Below, piece by piece: positions 92 through 11,572 of a DNA stretch of 55,824 nt. Source of the DNA: Vicingaceae bacterium (GTDB lineage Bacteria; Bacteroidota; Bacteroidia; Flavobacteriales_E; Vicingaceae); contig JBMYXB010000001.1 in assembly GCA_049608005.1 (NCBI GenBank), forward strand, positions 1 through 55,824, given 5' to 3'. The position numbers were made by a program, and so were the translations under genes. The notes beneath the pieces are model-generated. The model did not search any database, was not told the origin of the DNA, and saw nothing but the letters and a program-made list of their open reading frames with translations. How positions within the stretch are numbered: position 1 is the stretch's first letter; every line of letters begins with the position of its first letter.

Positions 92-895
92 CTAATTAAA
101 ATACTCTTTTTGCCAAAGTGCAGCTATATCCATAGTTATGGCAACAGAATAGTGGATGGCAACTCCTAGCCAAATAGAACGACTTTTTAAACTTAAAGCT
201 CCTAAAATTATACCTGCAAAAATGGCTCCCAAGGTTTCGGGCATTGGTTTCTGAAAATGAATCATCACGTAAGGAATCATCATCACAAAAACGGCATAAA
301 AACCAAAGCGTTTTTTTATTCCGTGTATCATAAACCCTCTAAAAAAGAATTCTAACGCAAAGAATTGAACTAAATATAAAACTTGCCAAATAATAAAATT
401 AGGCCATAAACTTTCTTCGTTAGGATTATAAAAAGGGTATTTATGTTGAAAGCTTTCTGTTGTAGAAACCATTAAGATTAATGGAATCATAAACAAAAAG
501 AAGATGACATAAATCTTATAATTTCCAAAAAAACCTTTTGGTGATAAACCATAATCACTTAGTTTATCTTTAAAAAACACTTTAATAATAAGTAATGGAA
601 TTATAAAATAAAAGGTTATGAGTATGCTAACCCAGTAAGTGAGCCGAAACAACCTTGCATTAGGAAAGTGAGCTTGCAGGGAAGAAATAAATGTTGAAAA
701 TTCGCTTAAACCGATACTTTTTAAGAAAGAAATTAAGAATTGAAAATTTCCGAAATACTCGATAAATACTAGAGAAAAGATAACTGTAAAAAGTATAAGA
801 AGTACCTTTTTATCTAAATTTTTGGTGGTATATTTTTCATTTTCTACCTGCTTAAAAGTATTTACAAAAATGGTATTCCAAATGCTATGCAACAT
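92..895 (-). CDS. CPBP family intramembrane metalloprotease (CAAX-protease-like)
   Basis: 267-aa polytopic membrane ORF. It has an ALEFFFRGF motif (E-x3-R type), plus later MIHF and AIHYSVAITMD His motifs typical of the CPBP/Abi family. Its start overlaps the stop of the upstream gene by 1 nt (TAATG on the minus strand). Confidence 0.65.
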   Translation of the reverse strand: MLHSIWNTIFVNTFKQVENEKYTTKNLDKKVLLILFTVIFSLVFIEYFGNFQFLISFLKSIGLSEFSTFISSLQAHFPNARLFRLTYWVSILITFYFIIPLLIIKVFFKDKLSDYGLSPKGFFGNYKIYVIFFLFMIPLILMVSTTESFQHKYPFYNPNEESLWPNFIIWQVLYLVQFFALEFFFRGFMIHGIKKRFGFYAVFVMMIPYVMIHFQKPMPETLGAIFAGIILGALSLKSRSIWLGVAIHYSVAITMDIAALWQKEYFN

Positions 896-4533: not shown

Positions 4534-5112
4534 ATGGACTTTAAAAATGCTAAAAAATATATTTTAGAACGGTTAGAGAAAGATTTAAGCCCTAACCTTT
4601 ACTATCATGGTGTTCATCATACTATTGATGTTTATGAATCTGCTATAAAAATTGCGGAGTTAGAAAATTTAGATGAAGATGAAAAAATGCTTGTGAAAAC
4701 AGCAGCGTTGTATCATGATACAGGTTTTTTATTTGAATACCATAACAATGAAAAATTAGCAATAAAATTAGTGAACCAAGTACTGCCAAAATTTTCTTAC
4801 AACAAAAAGCAATTACAAGTTATAAATGATATTATTAGTAGCACTCAATTAAAAGCAAAACCTAACAATTTACTTCAAAAAATAATGAACGATGCTGATT
4901 CGGATTATTTAGGTAGGAAAGATGTGGGTAAAATTGCCAATACGCTTTATGAGGAGTTAAAGTTGTATGGTGTAAATTATACTGCTGAAGAGTGGGTTAA
5001 AGTGCAACTAAATTTTTTAGAAAAACACCAGTACTATACAAAAATTGCTATAAAATTAAGAGAACCAGAAAAATTAGCTTATTGTAATTACTTAAAAAGC
5101 CACTCGAAGTAA
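4534..5112 (+). CDS. HD-domain phosphohydrolase
   Basis: 192 aa with HD-superfamily ligand pattern: YYHGVHHTIDV, ALYHDTGF, NDADSDYLG. Confidence 0.7.
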   Translation: MDFKNAKKYILERLEKDLSPNLYYHGVHHTIDVYESAIKIAELENLDEDEKMLVKTAALYHDTGFLFEYHNNEKLAIKLVNQVLPKFSYNKKQLQVINDIISSTQLKAKPNNLLQKIMNDADSDYLGRKDVGKIANTLYEELKLYGVNYTAEEWVKVQLNFLEKHQYYTKIAIKLREPEKLAYCNYLKSHSK

Positions 5113-5129
5113 ATTCGAGTGGCTTTTTT
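5099..5129. terminator. bidirectional rho-independent terminator
   Basis: The stem gccactcgaa (5099-5108) / ttcgagtggc (5114-5123) has a 5-nt loop that contains the stop codon. An A-run precedes it and a T6 run (5124-5129) follows. It lies between the convergent genes 4534..5112(+) and 5155..5778(-). Confidence 0.75.
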
Positions 5130-5154
5130 GTAATTTCCGTATTTTTTCAATTTT

Positions 5155-5778
5155 TTAACTTTCAATAACTTCTTGTGTTTGGTTCTCTCCAGCTAAAACT
5201 TTACCTGTAAATGCGGGGTAAGTATCGCTCATGTTACCCATAAAAAGTCCTAATCTCATAAACCATCTAAACGTGCCAACCACAAAGTCGAACATTCCTT
5301 TGGGGTATTTACCAGTAAACAAAACAGCCCACCATGCAATAAAAACAACTACGTAAACTCCAATAATTCTAAAGTAAAGAATAAATATGTGAGGAATTAG
5401 CACATAAAAAAAGCCAAAAAATGCTTTTAGTAACAAATTACCTCTACTAAGACTTTCAGGGTATTCCATTTCAAATGTTACGCTATCATCTTTGGCATCA
5501 AGACCAAAAGCAGGGTAACCATCAGATAGGTTTAGCAATCGGGCATTAACCCTTAGCTCCCAAAGTCTAAACTTTACCTGAAACTCAAACATTCCTTTGG
5601 GGTATTTACCAGTAAAAAGAATTGCCCAAAAAGCAATAAAACCCATAACCATTGAGGCTATAGCTAAAAAGAATAATACAAACATGTGAGGTATTAAAAT
5701 GTAAAAGACTCCGAAAAAAGATCTCAATAATAATTCTCCTCTAGAATAAGTTTCTTGGCGTTTAATGTCAAAATTCAT
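5155..5778 (-). CDS. DUF4389-like membrane protein (internally duplicated)
   Basis: 207 aa made of two ~95-aa modules. Each module has two hydrophobic helices plus FTGKYPKGMF(E/D)F and (G/T)YPAF motifs. Confidence 0.6.
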   Translation of the reverse strand: MNFDIKRQETYSRGELLLRSFFGVFYILIPHMFVLFFLAIASMVMGFIAFWAILFTGKYPKGMFEFQVKFRLWELRVNARLLNLSDGYPAFGLDAKDDSVTFEMEYPESLSRGNLLLKAFFGFFYVLIPHIFILYFRIIGVYVVVFIAWWAVLFTGKYPKGMFDFVVGTFRWFMRLGLFMGNMSDTYPAFTGKVLAGENQTQEVIES

Positions 5779-5810
5779 AGTTTAAAAATTTAGTTAGGTT
5801 AGTAGTAATT

Positions 5811-5844
5811 GAAAAAAAGCTCCGAATAACTGATTCGGAGCTTT
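5811..5844 (-). terminator. rho-independent terminator of the 5862..6275 gene
   Basis: 12-bp stem aaagctccgaat (5816-5827) / attcggagcttt (5833-5844) with a 5-nt loop. On the minus strand a T-run follows it (complement of gaaaaaaa at 5811-5818). Confidence 0.75.
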
Positions 5845-5861
5845 TATGAAAAGTAGCTTTT

Positions 5862-6275
5862 TTAAGCCATGTGTTTTACATTTAAATAGTAAAGAACAAT
5901 AAATAAAACAGGAATTATAGCACCTATTACTCCAAATGACATCCCGAATATTAACGGAAGAATAATAGCTATTACATTGGCTCCGGCATAAATAAAAAAT
6001 CCTTGTTTTTTTAATTTCCACATTTGTAATGCTCCAAATAATGAGGCTGCTGCTAAAAGTGTTCCAATTGCAAAATAAGCAGTTCCGCCTCCCATTGCTG
6101 CATCCATTCCAGGGATTGATTCCATTAAAGCGCCCATTCCTAAAGTCATTAGCAGACCTCCTAATAGCCCAATGCCACTTCCTATAAAAGTTAAAACACA
6201 AAGTACTGTTAAAAAAGTAGGTCTTTTTCCTGCTCCTGCAGATGATCCTGTTGATTCTGTAGTTTCTTCACTCAT
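5862..6275 (-). CDS. small Gly/Ala-rich integral membrane protein, unknown function
   Basis: 137 aa with a polar N-terminus followed by about four hydrophobic helices. A clean terminator follows. I prefer it over the overlapping 5794..6201 frame, which reads as Cys/Asn/Arg-rich nonsense. Confidence 0.55.
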   Translation of the reverse strand: MSEETTESTGSSAGAGKRPTFLTVLCVLTFIGSGIGLLGGLLMTLGMGALMESIPGMDAAMGGGTAYFAIGTLLAAASLFGALQMWKLKKQGFFIYAGANVIAIILPLIFGMSFGVIGAIIPVLFIVLYYLNVKHMA

Positions 6276-6586
6276 AATTTAAAAATTTAGTTAATTGTAT
6301 AATTAGTTGATGACCAATATATAAAGATATTTTTAATATCCAAAATTTAGAAGTTAGCTACTTGTTAACATTACTGTTTGTTGTGTAGAATGATTGATTG
6401 ATTTTTAACCGATAATAAAGGAATTTTTTAAATATTGTTGAGTGTTAATAAGTTTACTAACTTAGGTTCGGTTTAATATTTATTTGTAAAATATTTAACT
6501 TATTGATTACGACATTGTTACATTCTTTGTTTTTATTGGTCTTTATGTCGAACTCAGCTTGCTATTTAAATTGGATGGGATAAAAA

Positions 6587-8293
6587 TTATTGGTGCCAAG
6601 CCTTAAAATTGTCAGATTCTTCATTTTGTTGGATAGTATAAGTTTTAAAATAAAGAGTAGTGCTTTTGGGTAGTTTTATTTTTTCAATAACCCCTAAAGC
6701 TCGTTTAACTGATAAAGCCATTTCTTCCGTTTTAAAGTATTCAGTCCATTCGGTTAAATTGTTGGTTATTTTAATTCCGTTAATTGCAATTAGTTCATCA
6801 TTAATAGATAAGCAATTTTCTTCCACAATAGAATTAGGATAAATGTTATCTACTAAACATTTGTTGTTTTCATAACGAACAGTAAAGCCTAAAAAAGCTT
6901 CGTTGTAATTTTTTGAAGGTTCAATTTTTAAATCGCAACCAATGTAGTTTAAGCTTTCTTGTAAAGCTGAAGTGTAGTCTTCTGTTCCATGTAAAAAGTT
7001 GTTGTAAATTTCATTGTAAGAAGTTCCTGCTACTTGCTCAACAATAGTTTTGTAATCTAAATCGGAAACACCTTTTCCTTTTTTAGCAAAATCTTGATAT
7101 AAGATTTTCATGACATCATTTAATGATTTTTTATTGTTGGTATTTTGTAAGATAAAAATATCTGTTATAAAAGCAATTAAGGCACCCTCAGTATAAATAG
7201 AACCTTTTCTTCCTGGAGCTCCTTTTACATAACCATCCAGCCAAGTGTCAAAAGAAGATTGTACAACAGAATAATTATTAACTCCAAAATTAGTGTAATG
7301 CCTGCTCAATAATTGATTAAACGTTTTAGCATATTGATCCCAATTAAAAACACCCGAAGAAAATAAATATTTATCTCCAAAATAAGTGGTAACTCCTTCG
7401 GTTAAATATCCTAATTCGGTATAGTTTTCTTTGAAGTAATTGTAAGGCAACATTTCTATTGGCCTAATTTTTTTTACATTCCAAGAGTGATATAATTCGT
7501 GAGCACTAACGCCTAACAATTCATTGTACCAGCCTTCTTTTTTCATCACATCATAAGATGGGCCTAAAGAAATTACTGTTGAGTTGTAATGCTCTACTCC
7601 ATGATAGGTTCTGTGTGTTAAAATCTGGAATAAAAAATGATAATCTTTAGTAGGAAAATCTCCAAAATCTTCAATTTGAGCTTTGCTAAATTTTCTAAAA
7701 TCATTTTCTAACAATTTCCAGTTGGGTTTACATTCTCCTTGAAACCATAAATGGAATTTTACACCACTTTCGTTATACGTATGGTGTTGTAAACTGTTGC
7801 TTGCAATTAAAGGAGAATCTACTAATTGATGAAAATCTGCACATTTAAATTGATGTTGAGTTATTTCTTTTAAACCAGAAGCCACTTTATAATCTTTAGG
7901 AATTATTAATTCCAATTCGCATTCTTCATTTATTCGTTCGGGTACATATAAAAAACAATTTACGCCATTTATATAAAGTTGTTTATCATCCAAGTAAGAA
8001 GATCCTGCATTAATCTCATTGGCAAAATAGTTATACTTTATATGTATAGTTGAGTTTCCTTTTGTTTCAACTTCCCATAAATCTTTGGTTATTTTTTTTG
8101 AAGAAAGAGGTTTTCCATTGGGATCAAAAGCTTCCCATTTTTGTATGTTTTTAGCAAAATTGGCTAATTCATATCTTCCTGGTCTCCACGCAGGTAGTTG
8201 AATTTCAATTTTTTCAGAATTTACGTTATCAATAATATATTCAATATCAATATAATGCGTGTTTGGTTTTTGATAAGAAACGATGTATTTCAT
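6587..8293 (-). CDS. M61 family (glycyl aminopeptidase-like) zinc metallopeptidase with C-terminal PDZ-like domain
   Basis: 568 aa with HExxH zinc site in SAHELYHSWNV. Length and the C-terminal ~90-aa PDZ-like segment (IYPNSIVEENCLSINDELIAINGIKI) fit the family. Confidence 0.75.
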   Translation of the reverse strand: MKYIVSYQKPNTHYIDIEYIIDNVNSEKIEIQLPAWRPGRYELANFAKNIQKWEAFDPNGKPLSSKKITKDLWEVETKGNSTIHIKYNYFANEINAGSSYLDDKQLYINGVNCFLYVPERINEECELELIIPKDYKVASGLKEITQHQFKCADFHQLVDSPLIASNSLQHHTYNESGVKFHLWFQGECKPNWKLLENDFRKFSKAQIEDFGDFPTKDYHFLFQILTHRTYHGVEHYNSTVISLGPSYDVMKKEGWYNELLGVSAHELYHSWNVKKIRPIEMLPYNYFKENYTELGYLTEGVTTYFGDKYLFSSGVFNWDQYAKTFNQLLSRHYTNFGVNNYSVVQSSFDTWLDGYVKGAPGRKGSIYTEGALIAFITDIFILQNTNNKKSLNDVMKILYQDFAKKGKGVSDLDYKTIVEQVAGTSYNEIYNNFLHGTEDYTSALQESLNYIGCDLKIEPSKNYNEAFLGFTVRYENNKCLVDNIYPNSIVEENCLSINDELIAINGIKITNNLTEWTEYFKTEEMALSVKRALGVIEKIKLPKSTTLYFKTYTIQQNEESDNFKAWHQ

Positions 8294-8377
8294 GTAGTCA
8301 GATTAAAGTTAGAAAGTTAAAAGTAGAAAGTATTGTTTAATCAGGTTGTTTAAAACGAAAAGAAATTATTTTAAACA

Positions 8378-9826
8378 AGTAATTTAAAAACAAAAACTAC
8401 TAACTCTTTCCCTTTTTTTTAGGGGAAGTACCCGAAGGGGGAAGGGGTGAGAAATATATAAATATTTACTTAAAATACCCCTCTGTCCTACGGACATCTC
8501 CCCTAAAAGTGGAGAAGCAAAAAGCCATTTCATAAGAAGTTTCGTTAATTAAATGCACTACTCATTCTTCCCTTTTTTTTTAGGGGAAGTACCCGAAGGG
8601 GGAAGGGGTAAAGAAACGTATAAATATTTACTTAAAAACACCCCTCTGTCCTACGGACATCTCCCCTAAAAGTGGAGAAGTAAAAAACTATTTCATAAGA
8701 AGTTTCGTTAATTAAAAAAACTACCAACTTTTCCCTTTTTTTTTAGGGGAAGTACCCGAAGGGGGAAGGGGTGAAAACATATAATTATTTACTTAAAAAT
8801 ACCCCTCTGTCCTGCGGACATCTCCCCTAAAAGTGGAGAAGCAAAAAGCTATTTCATAAAAAGTTTTGTTAATTAAATACACTATCAACTCTTCTCCTTT
8901 TTTTAGGGGAAGTACCCGAAGGGGAAGGGGTAAAAAGCCTATAATTCTTTTACTTAAAAAACACCCCTCTGTCCTGCGGACATCTCCCCTAAAAGTGGAG
9001 AAGTAAAAACTATCGCATAATTAAAAAACAAAAAACTACTCACTCTTCCCCTTTTTTTTAGGGGAAGTACCCGAAGGGGGAAGGGGTAAAAAACATATAC
9101 TTATTTACTCAAAAATACCCCTCTGTCCTGCGGACATCTCCTCTAAAAGTGGAGAAGCAAAAAGCCATTTCATAAGAAGTTTCGTTAATTAAATGCACTA
9201 CTCATTCTTCCCTTTTTTTTTAGGGGAAGTACCCGAAGGGGGAAGGGGTAAAGAAACGTATAAATATTTACTTAAAAACACCCCTCTGTCCTACGGACAT
9301 CTCCCCTAAAAGTGGAGAAGTAAAAAACTATTTCATAAGAAGTTTCGTTAATTAAAAAAACTACCAACTTTTCCCTTTTTTTTTAGGGGAAGTACCCGAA
9401 GGGGGAAGGGGTGAAAACATATAATTATTTACTTAAAAATACCCCTCTGTCCTGCGGACATCTCCCCTAAAAGTGGAGAAGCAAAAAGCTATTTCATAAA
9501 AAGTTTTGTTAATTAAATACACTATCAACTCTTCTCCTTTTTTTAGGGGAAGTACCCGAAGGGGAAGGGGTAAAAAGCCTATAATTCTTTTACTTAAAAA
9601 ACACCCCTCTGTCCTGCGGACATCTCCCCTAAAAGTGGAGAAGTAAAAACTATCGCATAATTAAAAAACAAAAAACTACTCACTCTTCCCCTTTTTTTTA
9701 GGGGAAGTACCCGAAGGGGGAAGGGGTAAAAAACATATACTTATTTACTTAAAAATACCCCTCTGTCCTGCGGACATCTCCTCTAAAAGTGGAGAAGTAA
9801 AAAACTATTTCATAAAAAGTTTTGTT
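8378..9826. repeat. tandem array of nine copies of a 155-163-bp unit, non-coding
   Basis: The A-box AGGGGAAGTACCCGAAGGGGGAAGGGGT starts at 8421, 8582, 8745, 8905, 9060, 9222, 9385, 9545 and 9700. Each is followed, after ~28-31 AT-rich nt, by the B-box ACCCCTCTGTCCT(A/G)CGGACATCTCCCCT, then AAAAGTGGAGAAG, a 41-50-nt AT-rich spacer, a C/T-rich block (CTTCCC-type) and a T7-9 run. No ORF of 60 aa or more occurs in any frame. Confidence 0.95.
8503..9797. repeat. higher-order direct duplication with a 640-bp period (four units)
   Basis: 8503-9157 and 9143-9797 align at an offset of exactly 640 nt. I found one mismatch (9110 c versus 9750 t) by line-by-line comparison. Confidence 0.9.
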
Positions 9827-9846
9827 GTTTTGGAACACCTATTGTT

Positions 9847-9863
9847 CCCCCTTTTGAAGGGGG
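9847..9863. repeat. G/C-rich hairpin (7-bp stem, 3-nt loop), REP-like
   Basis: ccccctt (9847-9853) / aaggggg (9857-9863), followed by ctaggggga. Confidence 0.6.
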
Positions 9864-9883
9864 CTAGGGGGATTTTGCGTTAG

Positions 9884-9909
9884 GGATGGAAGCGGCATCC
9901 TTTTTTTTT
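9884..9909 (+). terminator. weak terminator-like hairpin plus T9 run downstream of the repeat array
   Basis: ggatg (9884-9888), a 7-nt loop, catcc (9896-9900), then nine T (9901-9909). The stem is only 5 bp, so this is tentative. Confidence 0.35.
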
Positions 9910-9921
9910 CTTCAACCACCG

Positions 9922-9968
9922 AATCCTCCAAGGTTTATATTGTTAAGCTAAATAAACCTTGGAGGATT
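9922..9968. repeat. perfect 17-bp inverted repeat with 13-nt loop
   Basis: aatcctccaaggtttat (9922-9938) / ataaaccttggaggatt (9952-9968). A T-run (9901-9909) lies upstream and an A8 run (~9986-9993) downstream. Confidence 0.85.
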
Positions 9969-10183
9969 ATAAACAAGTAAATAAAAAAAAGATATAGTGT
10001 ACAGCCCGTTAAAACGCCCAAATAAAGAAGTTAATTAATTGTAGATTTTAGACTTTGTTAAGCCTATAAGCTAGCTCTTTAAAACTTTATCAATTTTAGA
10101 CTTTACAAACTTTCTATTTTTTAACTTTTTAACTAATTTCGTACTCTATTAAATTAGAATATAAAAATTAAACATATATAGAT

Positions 10184-11572
10184 ATGAGTTATGATGTTAT
10201 TGTTGTAGGAAGTGGTCCTGGTGGTTATGTTACTGCTATTAGAGCTTCTCAATTAGGGTTGAAAACGGCTGTTGTTGAAAGATCAGAATTAGGTGGTATT
10301 TGCTTAAATTGGGGGTGTATTCCTACAAAAGCTTTATTAAAAAGTGCTAATGTATTTGAATATATTAACCATGCTGCCGATTACGGAATAAACATTAAAG
10401 GTGCTGATGCAGATTTCCCTGCAATAGTTAAAAGAAGTAGAGATGTTGCTGCAGGAATGAGTAATGGGATTCAGTTTTTAATGAAAAAAAATAAAATTGA
10501 TGTTATTACTGGTTCTGGAAAAGTTAAAGCGGGTAAAAAAGTGGATGTTACTGATGCTGATGGTAAAGTAACTGAATATGCTGCAAAAAACATTGTTATT
10601 GCAACTGGAGCAAGATCTAGAGAGTTACCTTTTTTACCACAAGATGGTAAAAAAATAATTGGATATAGAGAGGCATTAGTTTTACCTAAATTGCCTAAAA
10701 AAATGGTAGTGGTAGGTTCTGGAGCAATAGGGGTTGAGTTCGCTTACTTTTATAATGCTATGGGCGTTGATGTAACTATTGTAGAATTTATGGATAACAT
10801 TGTTCCGGTTGAAGATGTTGATGTGTCTAAGCAATTAGGACGTTCTTTTAAAAAATCTGGAATTAATGTAATGACTAAATCGTCAGTTAAGAGTGTAGAT
10901 ACTTCAGGTACTGGTTGTAAAGTGTTGGTTGAAACGAAGAAAGGTGAAGAAACTATTGAGTGTGATGTAGTGCTTTCGGCTGTTGGAATTAAAAGAAATA
11001 TCGAAAACATTGGTTTAGAAGATGTAGGAATTGCTACGGATAGTGATATTATTATTACTAATGATTTTTACCAAACAAACATTCCGGGTTATTATGCAAT
11101 TGGAGATGTTGCAAAAGGACCAGCATTAGCTCACGTAGCTTCTGCGGAAGGAATTATTTGTGTAGAAAAAATATCAGGAATGGATGTGGAACCATTGGAT
11201 TATGGAAATATTCCTGGGTGTACGTATTGTGCTCCAGAGGTTGCCTCAGTTGGAATGACTGAAGCTGCTGCAAAAGAGGCTGGTTATGAGTTAAAGATTG
11301 GTAAATTTCCTTTTTCAGCTTCTGGTAAGGCAAGTGCTGCAGGGCACAAAGATGGTTTTGTTAAATTGATTTTTGATGCTAAATATGGTGAGCTTTTAGG
11401 AGGACACATGATTGGTGCTAACGTAACCGAAATGATTGCTGAAATAGTTGCTATTAGAAAATTAGAAACTACTGGTCATGAATTAATTAAAACAGTTCAT
11501 CCTCATCCAACAATGAGTGAGGCTATTATGGAAGCTGCAGCTGCTGCTTACGATGAAGTAATACACATGTAA
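10184..11572 (+). CDS. lpdA: dihydrolipoyl dehydrogenase (E3 component)
   Basis: 462 aa. FAD GxGxxG (VVGSGPGG), redox-active disulfide GGICLNWGCIPTK, NAD-binding VVGSGAIGVEFA, and C-terminal HPHPTMSE His-Glu dyad. Confidence 0.92.
   Translation: MSYDVIVVGSGPGGYVTAIRASQLGLKTAVVERSELGGICLNWGCIPTKALLKSANVFEYINHAADYGINIKGADADFPAIVKRSRDVAAGMSNGIQFLMKKNKIDVITGSGKVKAGKKVDVTDADGKVTEYAAKNIVIATGARSRELPFLPQDGKKIIGYREALVLPKLPKKMVVVGSGAIGVEFAYFYNAMGVDVTIVEFMDNIVPVEDVDVSKQLGRSFKKSGINVMTKSSVKSVDTSGTGCKVLVETKKGEETIECDVVLSAVGIKRNIENIGLEDVGIATDSDIIITNDFYQTNIPGYYAIGDVAKGPALAHVASAEGIICVEKISGMDVEPLDYGNIPGCTYCAPEVASVGMTEAAAKEAGYELKIGKFPFSASGKASAAGHKDGFVKLIFDAKYGELLGGHMIGANVTEMIAEIVAIRKLETTGHELIKTVHPHPTMSEAIMEAAAAAYDEVIHM

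Follow-up and report, generated by a model that had tools for sequence, protein, structure and literature searches.

We analyzed a tandem array of conserved G/C-rich boxes that lies in an intergenic region of a Vicingaceae bacterium (Bacteroidota; GenBank assembly GCA_049608005.1, contig JBMYXB010000001.1). The window, i.e., the whole stretch of DNA that was analyzed, comprises 55,824 nt (positions 1 to 55,824 of the forward strand), and coordinates refer to it unless another locus is named. The array is located between a gene encoding an M61 peptidase on the minus strand (6587..8293; Pfam Peptidase_M61_N, Peptidase_M61, and PDZ) and a gene encoding an lpdA-type dihydrolipoamide dehydrogenase on the plus strand (10184..11572; Pfam Pyr_redox_2 and Pyr_redox_dim). 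Both identities and the divergent orientation of these genes had been proposed in an earlier description based on the letters alone (hereafter, the sequence-only reading), and they were borne out by Pfam. The gap between the two genes (8294-10183) contains no open reading frame (ORF) of 60 aa or more, as had also been reported; the longest measures 49 aa. Using Tandem Repeats Finder, we located the array at 8394-9826 (no strand assigned) with a period of 161 bp, 9.0 copies, 84% matches, and a score of 2045; an alternative reading of the same array has a period of 324. Two conserved boxes, which we term box A and box B, were each recovered nine times by the repeat finder at a spacing of 154-163 nt. 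The array thus consists of nine head-to-tail units of about 160 bp, as the sequence-only reading had claimed, and extends over ~1.43 kb. We also agree that it is not a coding region, a ribosomal or transfer RNA locus, or an insertion sequence.

Each box is composed of three homopurine or homopyrimidine blocks. In box B these are ordered Y1-hairpin-Y2-loop-R, where the pyrimidine block Y1 mirrors Y2 and the purine block R complements Y2. The order in box A is Y-loop-R1-hairpin-R2, where R2 mirrors R1. For example, the box B at 9117-9157 reads A-CCCCTCT-GTCC-TGC-GGAC-A-TCTCC(CC)-TAAAAGT-GGAGA-AG, and the box A at 9045-9087 reads CTTCCCC-T8-AGGGGAAG-T-ACCCGAAGGG-G-GAAGGGG-T. The core of box B, ACCCCTCTGTCCTRCGGACATCTCC, was found nine times without any mismatch in the whole window, always within the array, for an expectation of 0.00 in shuffled sequences. 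The core of box A, GGGGAAGTACCCGAAGGGGGAAGGGGT, is present in seven exact copies, and two more copies are short of one G. The hairpin stem of box B forms a 13-bp palindrome, TGTCC-N3-GGACA. The boxes are separated by AT-rich spacers of ~28 nt (from A to B) and ~70 nt (from B to the next A). According to the repeat finder, box A also matches the reverse complement of box B imperfectly (32 nt, 72%), with a compensated internal hairpin. A box B and the box A that follows it make up an imperfect palindrome of ~135 nt. The predicted fold of a B-spacer-A segment is one long imperfect hairpin of -47.5 and -49.8 kcal/mol on the two strands (z-scores of -3.6 and -3.3). Such near-equal folding of both strands is expected of an inverted DNA repeat.

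All copies of both boxes are on the plus strand. Box A is found at 8406..8448, 8567..8609, 8728..8772, 8891..8931, 9045..9087, 9207..9249, 9368..9412, 9531..9571, and 9685..9727, with the fourth and eighth copies one G shorter. The first copy, which is not preceded by a box B, has the structure Y(CTTTCCC)-T-rich loop-R1(GGGGAAG)-T-hairpin(ACCC GAA GGG)-R2(GAAGGGG), the class II arrangement defined below. Box B is found at 8477..8517, 8640..8680, 8801..8841, 8963..9003, 9117..9157, 9280..9320, 9441..9481, 9603..9643, and, as the final copy, at 9757..9797. Its first copy has the structure Y1(CCCCTCT)-hairpin(GTCC TAC GGAC)-A-Y2(TCTCCCC)-loop-R(GGAGA), which corresponds to class IV, and the fifth carries the variant TCTCCTC. 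A variant box A without internal hairpin (GTTCCCCC-TTTTGAA-GGGGG-CTA-GGGGGAT; 9844..9873, plus strand) is the partner of the last box B. This variant type, Y-loop-R1-CTA/TTA-R2, is also present in Chloroflexota loci.

Measured from one box B start to the next, the units are 163, 161, 162, 154, 163, 161, 162, and 154 bp long. They fall into four subtypes that are 83-90% identical to one another and follow the order a-b-c-d-a-b-c-d-a'. When the subtypes were aligned, box B was invariant at 39 of 41 positions and the core of box A was nearly invariant, whereas the AT-rich spacers were variable. This bears out the proposal of the sequence-only reading that the G/C boxes, and not a reading frame, are conserved. 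In addition, two stretches of 607 bp, at 8503..9109 and 9143..9749 (no strand assigned), are 100% identical at an offset of 640 bp (family D1 of the repeat finder, 99%) and represent the two halves of a 640-bp four-unit duplication. Six differences occur directly past the identical stretch, at 9110-9183. An identity of this length points to a very recent duplication or to an assembly loop. Combined with the four diverged subtypes, it suggests at least two rounds of amplification, of which the last was very recent or is itself an assembly loop.

The window is apparently one whole metagenomic contig, and the exact copy number of nine therefore depends on its assembly. It could be argued that the count of nine was produced artificially by short-read metagenome assembly, perhaps along with the higher-order duplication, and that the true array has about five units or some other number. 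The 607 bp repeated without change at an offset of 640 bp would fit such an artefact, as would the fact that the array was found once, on a single metagenomic contig, with no second array-bearing contig in the metagenome scan. Four distinct subtypes and a distinct last unit are impossible to obtain from a collapsed single repeat, however, and the six differences just past the identical stretch also argue for genuine copies. Moreover, a related tandem cluster exists in an isolate genome, that of Lewinella cohaerens DSM 23179. We consider an assembly origin of the copy number unlikely. The secure content of the array is at least five distinct units, and the figure of nine is assembly-dependent.

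The relationship between the blocks is preserved when their sequence changes. When any pyrimidine was allowed at the three inner positions of Y1 and of Y2 in box B, 147 instances from all the loci retrieved were mirrors and three were not. Non-canonical versions of box B alone comprise 19 mirrors (CCT/TCC in eight, TCC/CCT in five, TTT/TTT in three, TTC/CTT in two, and CCC/CCC in one) against three single-position exceptions, where a mirror is expected by chance in one case out of eight. The lengths of the C runs of Y1 and Y2 also agree in most of the 139 non-redundant instances: 16 have lengths of (3,3), 56 of (4,4), 44 of (5,5), and three of (6,6), and ~20 are off-diagonal. The purine block R changes along with the pyrimidine blocks in most variants (e.g., CCCCUUU/UUUCCCCC/GGGGAAA and CCCCCUUC/CUUCCCCC/GGGGAAG), with occasional single mismatches. 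The stems formed by Y2 and R vary from 4 to 20 bp, and the sequences of their extensions differ between instances. Finally, a purine motif with perfect mirror symmetry was found at most 160 nt downstream in 34 of the 139 box B instances, with 15 different R1 blocks (0.0 in shuffled controls).

The defining hallmark of intrastrand triplexes is mirror symmetry combined with a third, complementary block. This class of elements was described by Hoyne, Maher et al. (2000); its "potential intrastrand triplex" (PIT) elements, which are identical to the older BoxC repeats, were characterized by Holder et al. (2015; PMC4666352). In the published nomenclature, box B belongs to class IV (Hoogsteen pyrimidine, Watson-Crick pyrimidine, purine) and box A to class II (pyrimidine, purine, reverse-Hoogsteen purine). 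Since a class IV element reads as class II on the opposite strand, the array units are inverted pairs that each combine two subtypes of one element type. Both boxes possess the three blocks that characterize PIT/TM elements (CTTCCCC/GGGGAAG/GAAGGGG in box A; CCCCTCT/TCTCCCC/GGAGA in box B, extended by -GGGG in other genomes) and a mirror that is kept by covariation. They fall outside the ITxF definition: their 7-nt blocks fit the range of 6-15 nt, but their loops exceed the allowed 1-6 nt. In loop 2, a hairpin of 10-13 nt is joined by 1-2 further nucleotides, and loop 1 measures 7-9 nt here and reaches tens of nucleotides elsewhere. Nor do the boxes match the TM_ECO/BoxC consensus, from which they differ in sequence and in block lengths. 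The claim of the sequence-only reading that nothing known explains the array was nevertheless too strong, since BoxC/PIT/TM intrastrand-triplex repeats have been described (PMC4666352). We also considered a five-way junction in which Y1 of box B would pair with R2 of box A to form the outer stem. This structure was rejected: the complementarity of the flanks was only two to three times that of the control, and phage copies occur without box A. A junction of this kind is not needed to account for Y1.

Both boxes were found well beyond the window, as dispersed and mostly single intergenic copies at more than 180 loci in many phyla and in phage contigs. The 23-nt core of box B has exact matches at 24 loci in phage-type contigs, and a 19-nt version was found at at least 120 loci in a scan of one genome per species. 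Nearly all loci in genomes have one copy in an intergenic gap; among the matches listed, several other genomes carry three to five or more box B loci. The hosts among the matches listed include Chloroflexota, Ruminococcus and other Clostridia, Abditibacterium, and Chlorobiota; within Bacteroidota, Dokdonia, Allomuricauda, Lewinella, Labilibaculum, Ancylomarina, and metagenome-assembled genomes (MAGs) of Bacteroidales; and, within the candidate phyla radiation, Moraniibacteriota, Gracilibacteria, and Peribacteria. One gammaproteobacterial MAG and one Bathyarchaeia MAG are also among these matches. The bins of MAGs may hold foreign contigs, and the rarer hosts are therefore tentative. The 19-nt core of box A was found at 65 metagenome loci on contigs ranging from 24% to 72% in G+C content. 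It is single-copy at all but one of them, and no tandem array was detected among the 65. A few of the matches in high-GC contigs are located in apparently coding sequence and may be due to chance.

The copies of box B in phage contigs are without exception on the coding strand, where they begin 4-5 nt past a stop codon and leave 24-55 nt between their end and the next start codon. The orientation of box B relative to genes is only weakly biased in bacteria, with 23 copies in the same and 16 in the opposite direction. Some phage-type contigs with ~50% G+C contain several box B elements each, with long covarying stems (UCUCCCCCAAAU...AUUUGGGGGAGA); the multi-copy contigs, from IMG/VR, are L008 (positions 1050, 6922, 11569, and 12070), L023, L011, and L220 (four copies). 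Tandem arrangements were found at two other loci. In L. cohaerens DSM 23179, units that contain box B form an array of 3.6 copies of 170 nt with 94% identity (L041:4956-5565). The units of this array each end in a terminator-like hairpin followed by a U tract (CUCCUCCC-UGGUAA-GGAGGGG-CUUUUUU) and each contain TAATTTTA, which resembles the Bacteroidetes -7 box; they could be transcribed individually. The second array (L208:1857-2049) consists of 3.2 copies of 60 nt on a metagenome contig with 27% G+C and is made of short triplex-like units of the TTC/CTT type (CCCTTCGGACACTTCC...).

The box B of Ruminococcus is embedded in a larger structure whose outer stem covaries (GGGGCGAUG...CAUCGCCCC versus GGAACGCCG...CGGCGUUCC), and it has a conserved GGGAGUCACCC tail. 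This version, which is represented by L043, L057, L058, L094, L097, and other Ruminococcus loci and by the gut phage-type contigs L003-L021, is often located near GTAG-type, REP-like palindromes (tgtaggggcgg...ccgcccctaca). An inverted pair of box B elements ~100 nt apart was also observed at the very start of the 4.7-Mb record of Abditibacterium chromosome_2 (L036:36-57, plus strand, and 158-179, minus strand).

The copies are not associated with any class of genes. We identified 290 Pfam families among 150 neighboring ORFs, and none of them occurs more than three times. The most common family among the small neighboring ORFs is DUF559, with three occurrences in 150, a weak signal that does not amount to enrichment and that we keep as a lead only. 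ORFs with this Vsr-like endonuclease domain adjoin or run into some of the elements: one is located between two element pairs (L136, 6245-6607, minus strand), another lies at 3690-4061 of L038, and a third, in L158, ends inside a box A near position 1097. A link to a mobilizing nuclease is possible. The boxes themselves match no Rfam model. With a permissive threshold (E<=10), the array units reached only E values of at least 0.2 to unrelated models, and a scan of 29 other loci at gathering score returned no match at box B or at neighboring A-type motifs.

The array is restricted to this lineage in the loci that we compared. The exact proteins encoded by the flanking genes are not on record, and we used their homologues for the comparison. 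The best homologues of the M61 peptidase are 77-81% identical and include MAGs labeled Vicingaceae or Flavobacteriales; the homologue of Vicingus serpentipes is 71% identical. The M61 protein thereby assigns the contig to Vicingaceae-like Flavobacteriales. In five syntenic loci of relatives (M61 identity of 71-80%), the divergent lpdA/M61 pair is kept with a gap of 70-207 bp, and the array is absent from all five. The ancestral sequence of the short gap can be recognized in the window at ~8294-8340, next to the M61 promoter, and at ~10050-10183, upstream of lpdA. The likely -7 box of lpdA, TAATTTCG, lies at 10134, inside this ancestral stretch. The short gap of the relatives and the recognizable flanks indicate that a block of ~1.7 kb is a lineage-specific insertion between two promoters.

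Besides the array and the variant box A, this insertion contains a Flavo-1 RNA motif (RF01705; 9872..10015, plus strand; 45.6 bits for a gathering score of 42) with a nested palindrome. Known RNA families were rejected as an explanation of the array, for whose units Rfam yielded nothing at gathering score or, apart from the weak hits to unrelated models, at E<=10; Flavo-1, which lies beside the array, is the only match in the window at gathering score. The terminal loop of Flavo-1 carries an insertion of 74 nt, and a perfect 16-nt inverted repeat lies within this loop (9923..9967, no strand assigned; ATCCTCCAAGGTTTAT / ATAAACCTTGGAGGAT). In the transcriptome of F. psychrophilum, Flavo-1 was found in sense, in antisense, or outside of transcribed regions, as expected of a repeat (PMC9723704). 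The array, the variant box A, and the greater part of the Flavo-1 match are enclosed by a pair of 23-nt direct repeats (8368..8390 and 9966..9988, both on the plus strand; family D6 of the repeat finder, 87% identical). This pair may be a trace of the insertion or duplication of the ~1.7-kb block.

We searched the array for signals of transcription. No terminator-like site was found, and sigma-70-like hits were at background level. The Bacteroidetes-type promoter TTG-N17-22-TAnnTTT had no match on either strand, and the -7-like motif TAnnTT[TC]G matched only once, on the minus strand of unit 5.

These results suggest that the array is probably a tandemly amplified, BIME-like, non-coding cluster of inverted pairs of intrastrand-triplex-type repeats. 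Three options had been offered by the sequence-only reading, namely tandem structured small RNAs, an amplified REP/BIME-like array, and a protein-binding or nucleoid-organizing array. The second is favored by the dispersal of the boxes, their absence in relatives, and the lack of signals in each unit, whereas the other two found no positive support. Only in this lineage would one or a few pairs of elements have reached the gap that separates the divergent promoters. Such elements may fold into a hairpin or a triplex whenever they become single-stranded, as on the lagging-strand template at replication forks. These structures could in turn cause polymerase stalling, slippage, and unequal exchange between adjacent copies. 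A pair sited between two promoters would do little harm there and might expand into an array, first of four units that diverged and then, very recently, through the copying of the four units as a block of 640 bp. The array as such probably arose as a side effect of repeat instability and may have no dedicated cellular function.

Several observations weigh against this interpretation. The sequence-only reading had held that dispersed, single intergenic copies would make the unit a generic repeat family. This is largely what we observed across other genomes, but neither box has another copy in the remaining ~54 kb of the window or in ~55 kb of the relatives' loci, and a high-copy family is thus not shown in the lineage itself. 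The boxes are also far better conserved than the spacers among the four subtypes, which may mean that a function is under selection, beyond any effect of gene conversion or recent origin. Mismatches in the stem of box A are mostly G-U wobbles (25, versus nine other mismatches), which suggests strand-specific folding, and the constant location of box B on the coding strand of phages hints at a role at the RNA level, at least in phages. Finally, even the E. coli prototype of these elements, which forms a stable triplex in vitro as single-stranded DNA, showed no detectable triplex in double-stranded DNA or by in vivo footprinting (PMC4666352).

Alternatively, the array might be transcribed into structured RNAs, with box B folded into an RNA triple helix of the pyrimidine motif (C+.G-C and U.A-U triples) that serves in the protection or processing of RNA ends. 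Such RNAs would have a multi-copy source in the array, or the array would act as a long structured 5' leader for lpdA. The direction of box B, on the plus strand like lpdA and Flavo-1, is consistent with this, as are the wobble bias of the stems and the phage contigs, where several copies per contig are co-oriented with the genes. The Lewinella units, with their terminator-like hairpin, U tract, and -7-like TAATTTTA, also fit a transcribed element. In contrast, the units in the window have no promoter-like or terminator-like signal, the likely lpdA promoter is downstream of the insertion in ancestral sequence, the array is missing from the relatives, and the orientation bias in bacteria is weak. 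In addition, four to five consecutive C+.G-C triples are disfavored at neutral pH, which also counts against an RNA triple helix. Pyrimidine-type intrastrand triplexes are possible in RNA, but box A is a purine motif, and purine-motif triplexes do not form in RNA (PMC4666352). PIT elements furthermore acted neither as promoters nor as terminators in E. coli (PMC4666352). We regard the transcription of the array into such RNAs as quite unlikely. The broader proposition that box B and its kin are a functional, horizontally spread RNA element, i.e., a hairpin-bridged pyrimidine-motif triple helix acting on transcripts, with the array as an expressed multi-copy locus, appears improbable. If it were true, box B might, for example, stop 3'-exonucleases or flag sites of processing between cistrons, and it would be the bacterial equivalent of the ENE/MALAT1 triple helices of viruses and eukaryotes.

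Mobilization in trans provides another possible origin of the cluster. The units would be classical REP/REPIN or MITE elements moved by a RAYT (an IS200/IS605-type Y1 transposase) or by another transposase, and the array would be a true BIME. The inverted doublets do form hairpins, are intergenic, alternate in clusters, and have many dispersed copies in other genomes, and RAYT subclasses of Bacteroidetes are associated with atypical structures (PMC6006769). The DUF559 nuclease ORFs that adjoin a few copies (3 of the 150 small ORFs) might be read in the same sense. Yet the tetranucleotide GT[AG]G is absent from the foot of the hairpin in either box, no target-site duplications were seen, and no transposase family is enriched in the ORFs that neighbor the copies in other genomes. 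REPs are also normally species-specific (PMC6006769), whereas these cores are identical across phyla. Mobilization by a RAYT or another transposase thus seems a poor candidate next to the amplification of triplex-type repeats proposed above.

The array could also bind proteins, organize the nucleoid, or act as an insulator between the divergent promoters. It is located exactly between two such promoters, its boxes are periodic and conserved, the palindrome of the box B stem (TGTCC-N3-GGACA) could be bound by a dimeric protein, and the REP/BIME elements of E. coli bind IHF, gyrase, and Pol I (PMC6006769). Symmetric DNA-binding dimers do not recognize mirror repeats, however, and the covariation of the boxes preserves complementarity and mirror symmetry and not a fixed sequence. 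Elsewhere the boxes show no association with genes or regulators, relatives with the same gene pair have no array, and there are no DnaA boxes in the gap. A protein-binding or insulating role therefore appears very improbable.

The remaining candidates were rejected. At the gap (~8000-10000), the sign of the GC skew switches from minus to plus, and it switches back near 50 kb. These switches coincide with gene orientation, with minus-strand genes before 8.3 kb and plus-strand genes from 10.2 to 47.5 kb. No TTATCCACA-like DnaA box (at most one mismatch) was found in 4931-10789, and the count across the window equals that expected by chance, so that the change in skew is no evidence for a replication origin. 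Likewise, a self-cleaving ribozyme or riboswitch, which was prompted by the cross-phylum core and the intergenic sites in phages, has no Rfam support and no gene association, and it is not favored since the triplex blocks explain the conserved nucleotides.

If the array is indeed an amplified cluster of triplex-type repeats, the appropriate annotation for the region is a repeat cluster rather than a gene or an RNA locus, with a copy number that is unreliable pending long reads. The locus also exemplifies the local genome instability that has been ascribed to such repeats, with a 1.7-kb insertion and an amplification at an otherwise conserved gene pair. The family of elements constitutes a natural test set for whether triple helices form and matter in bacteria, be it in replicating DNA or in RNA, and it bears on how such elements spread between phyla.

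Compared with known systems, the array resembles a CRISPR in its regularly spaced conserved repeats and its non-coding location. The spacers of the array are homologous to one another, which excludes a CRISPR, as the sequence-only reading had rightly concluded; the array also has a period of 161 bp, its boxes do not amount to one direct repeat of 23-50 nt, and the genes nearby, which are metabolic or glycosyltransferase genes, include no cas genes. Tandem small RNA families such as LhrC, Qrr, and PrrF also consist of head-to-tail intergenic units of 100-200 nt with conserved structured cores. These families have a promoter and a terminator for each unit and are kept between relatives, whereas neither signal was found in the array, which the relatives lack. 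Flavo-1 is likewise intergenic in flavobacteria and similar to a dispersed repeat, and one copy adjoins the array in the same insertion. It has no purine or pyrimidine mirror blocks, however, and the array units match no Rfam model. Searches of the literature with the sequence strings of the boxes returned no match, and those on RNA triple helices and on REPs in Bacteroidetes and Chloroflexi yielded nothing specific beyond the RAYT/REP background.

The similarity to REP, BIME, and REPIN elements is closer. These are short, intergenic, imperfect palindromes whose inverted doublets form long hairpins and whose presence varies between lineages. The alternation of boxes A and B reproduces the alternating orientation and the two kinds of alternating spacers that are seen in BIME-2 clusters. 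In contrast to REPs, the boxes lack the guide tetranucleotide GT[AG]G that is located 0-2 nt 5' of the hairpin foot (PMC6006769); box A contains GTAC. REPs are species-specific (PMC6006769), whereas the cores of the window are conserved across phyla. The units of the window also add mirror symmetry to palindromic symmetry and are much longer, at ~161 bp per pair.

The closest relatives of the boxes are the BoxC/PIT/TM_ECO elements, whose consensus is 5'-CCCTCNCCC-N3-6-GGGNGAGGG-N3-GGGNGAGGG (PMC4666352). Both have three homopurine or homopyrimidine blocks per strand, the third of which mirrors the second, in the arrangement Y-loop-R-loop-R (class II), the complement of which is a pyrimidine motif. 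PIT elements number 3610 copies in 262 proteobacterial genomes, where they are always intergenic, with no strand bias and no functional association; five inverted pairs in E. coli each combine two subtypes, and PIT loci are significantly more variable between strains (PMC4666352). The elements described here are likewise G/C-rich and intergenic, have no link to a class of genes, form inverted pairs of two subtypes, and are found at a locally variable site of the genome. They differ by blocks of 7 nt (GGGGAAG/GAAGGGG and CCCCTCT/TCTCCCC) in place of the 9-nt GGGNGAGGG of TM_ECO, and by a second loop that is a conserved 10-13-nt hairpin (ACCC-GAA-GGG or GTCC-TNC-GGAC), outside the ITxF range of 1-6 nt. 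Published searches for triplexes allowed loops of 1-6 nt only (PMC4666352), which placed the hairpin-bridged version beyond their reach. TM_ECO was reported in Proteobacteria and not in phages or plasmids, whereas the cores of the window occur in many phyla and in phage contigs, and in the window the pairs have multiplied to a tandem array of nine units. The class of elements is thus already known, and what is new is its hairpin-bridged form, which is common to several phyla and to phages and is amplified into an array at this locus.

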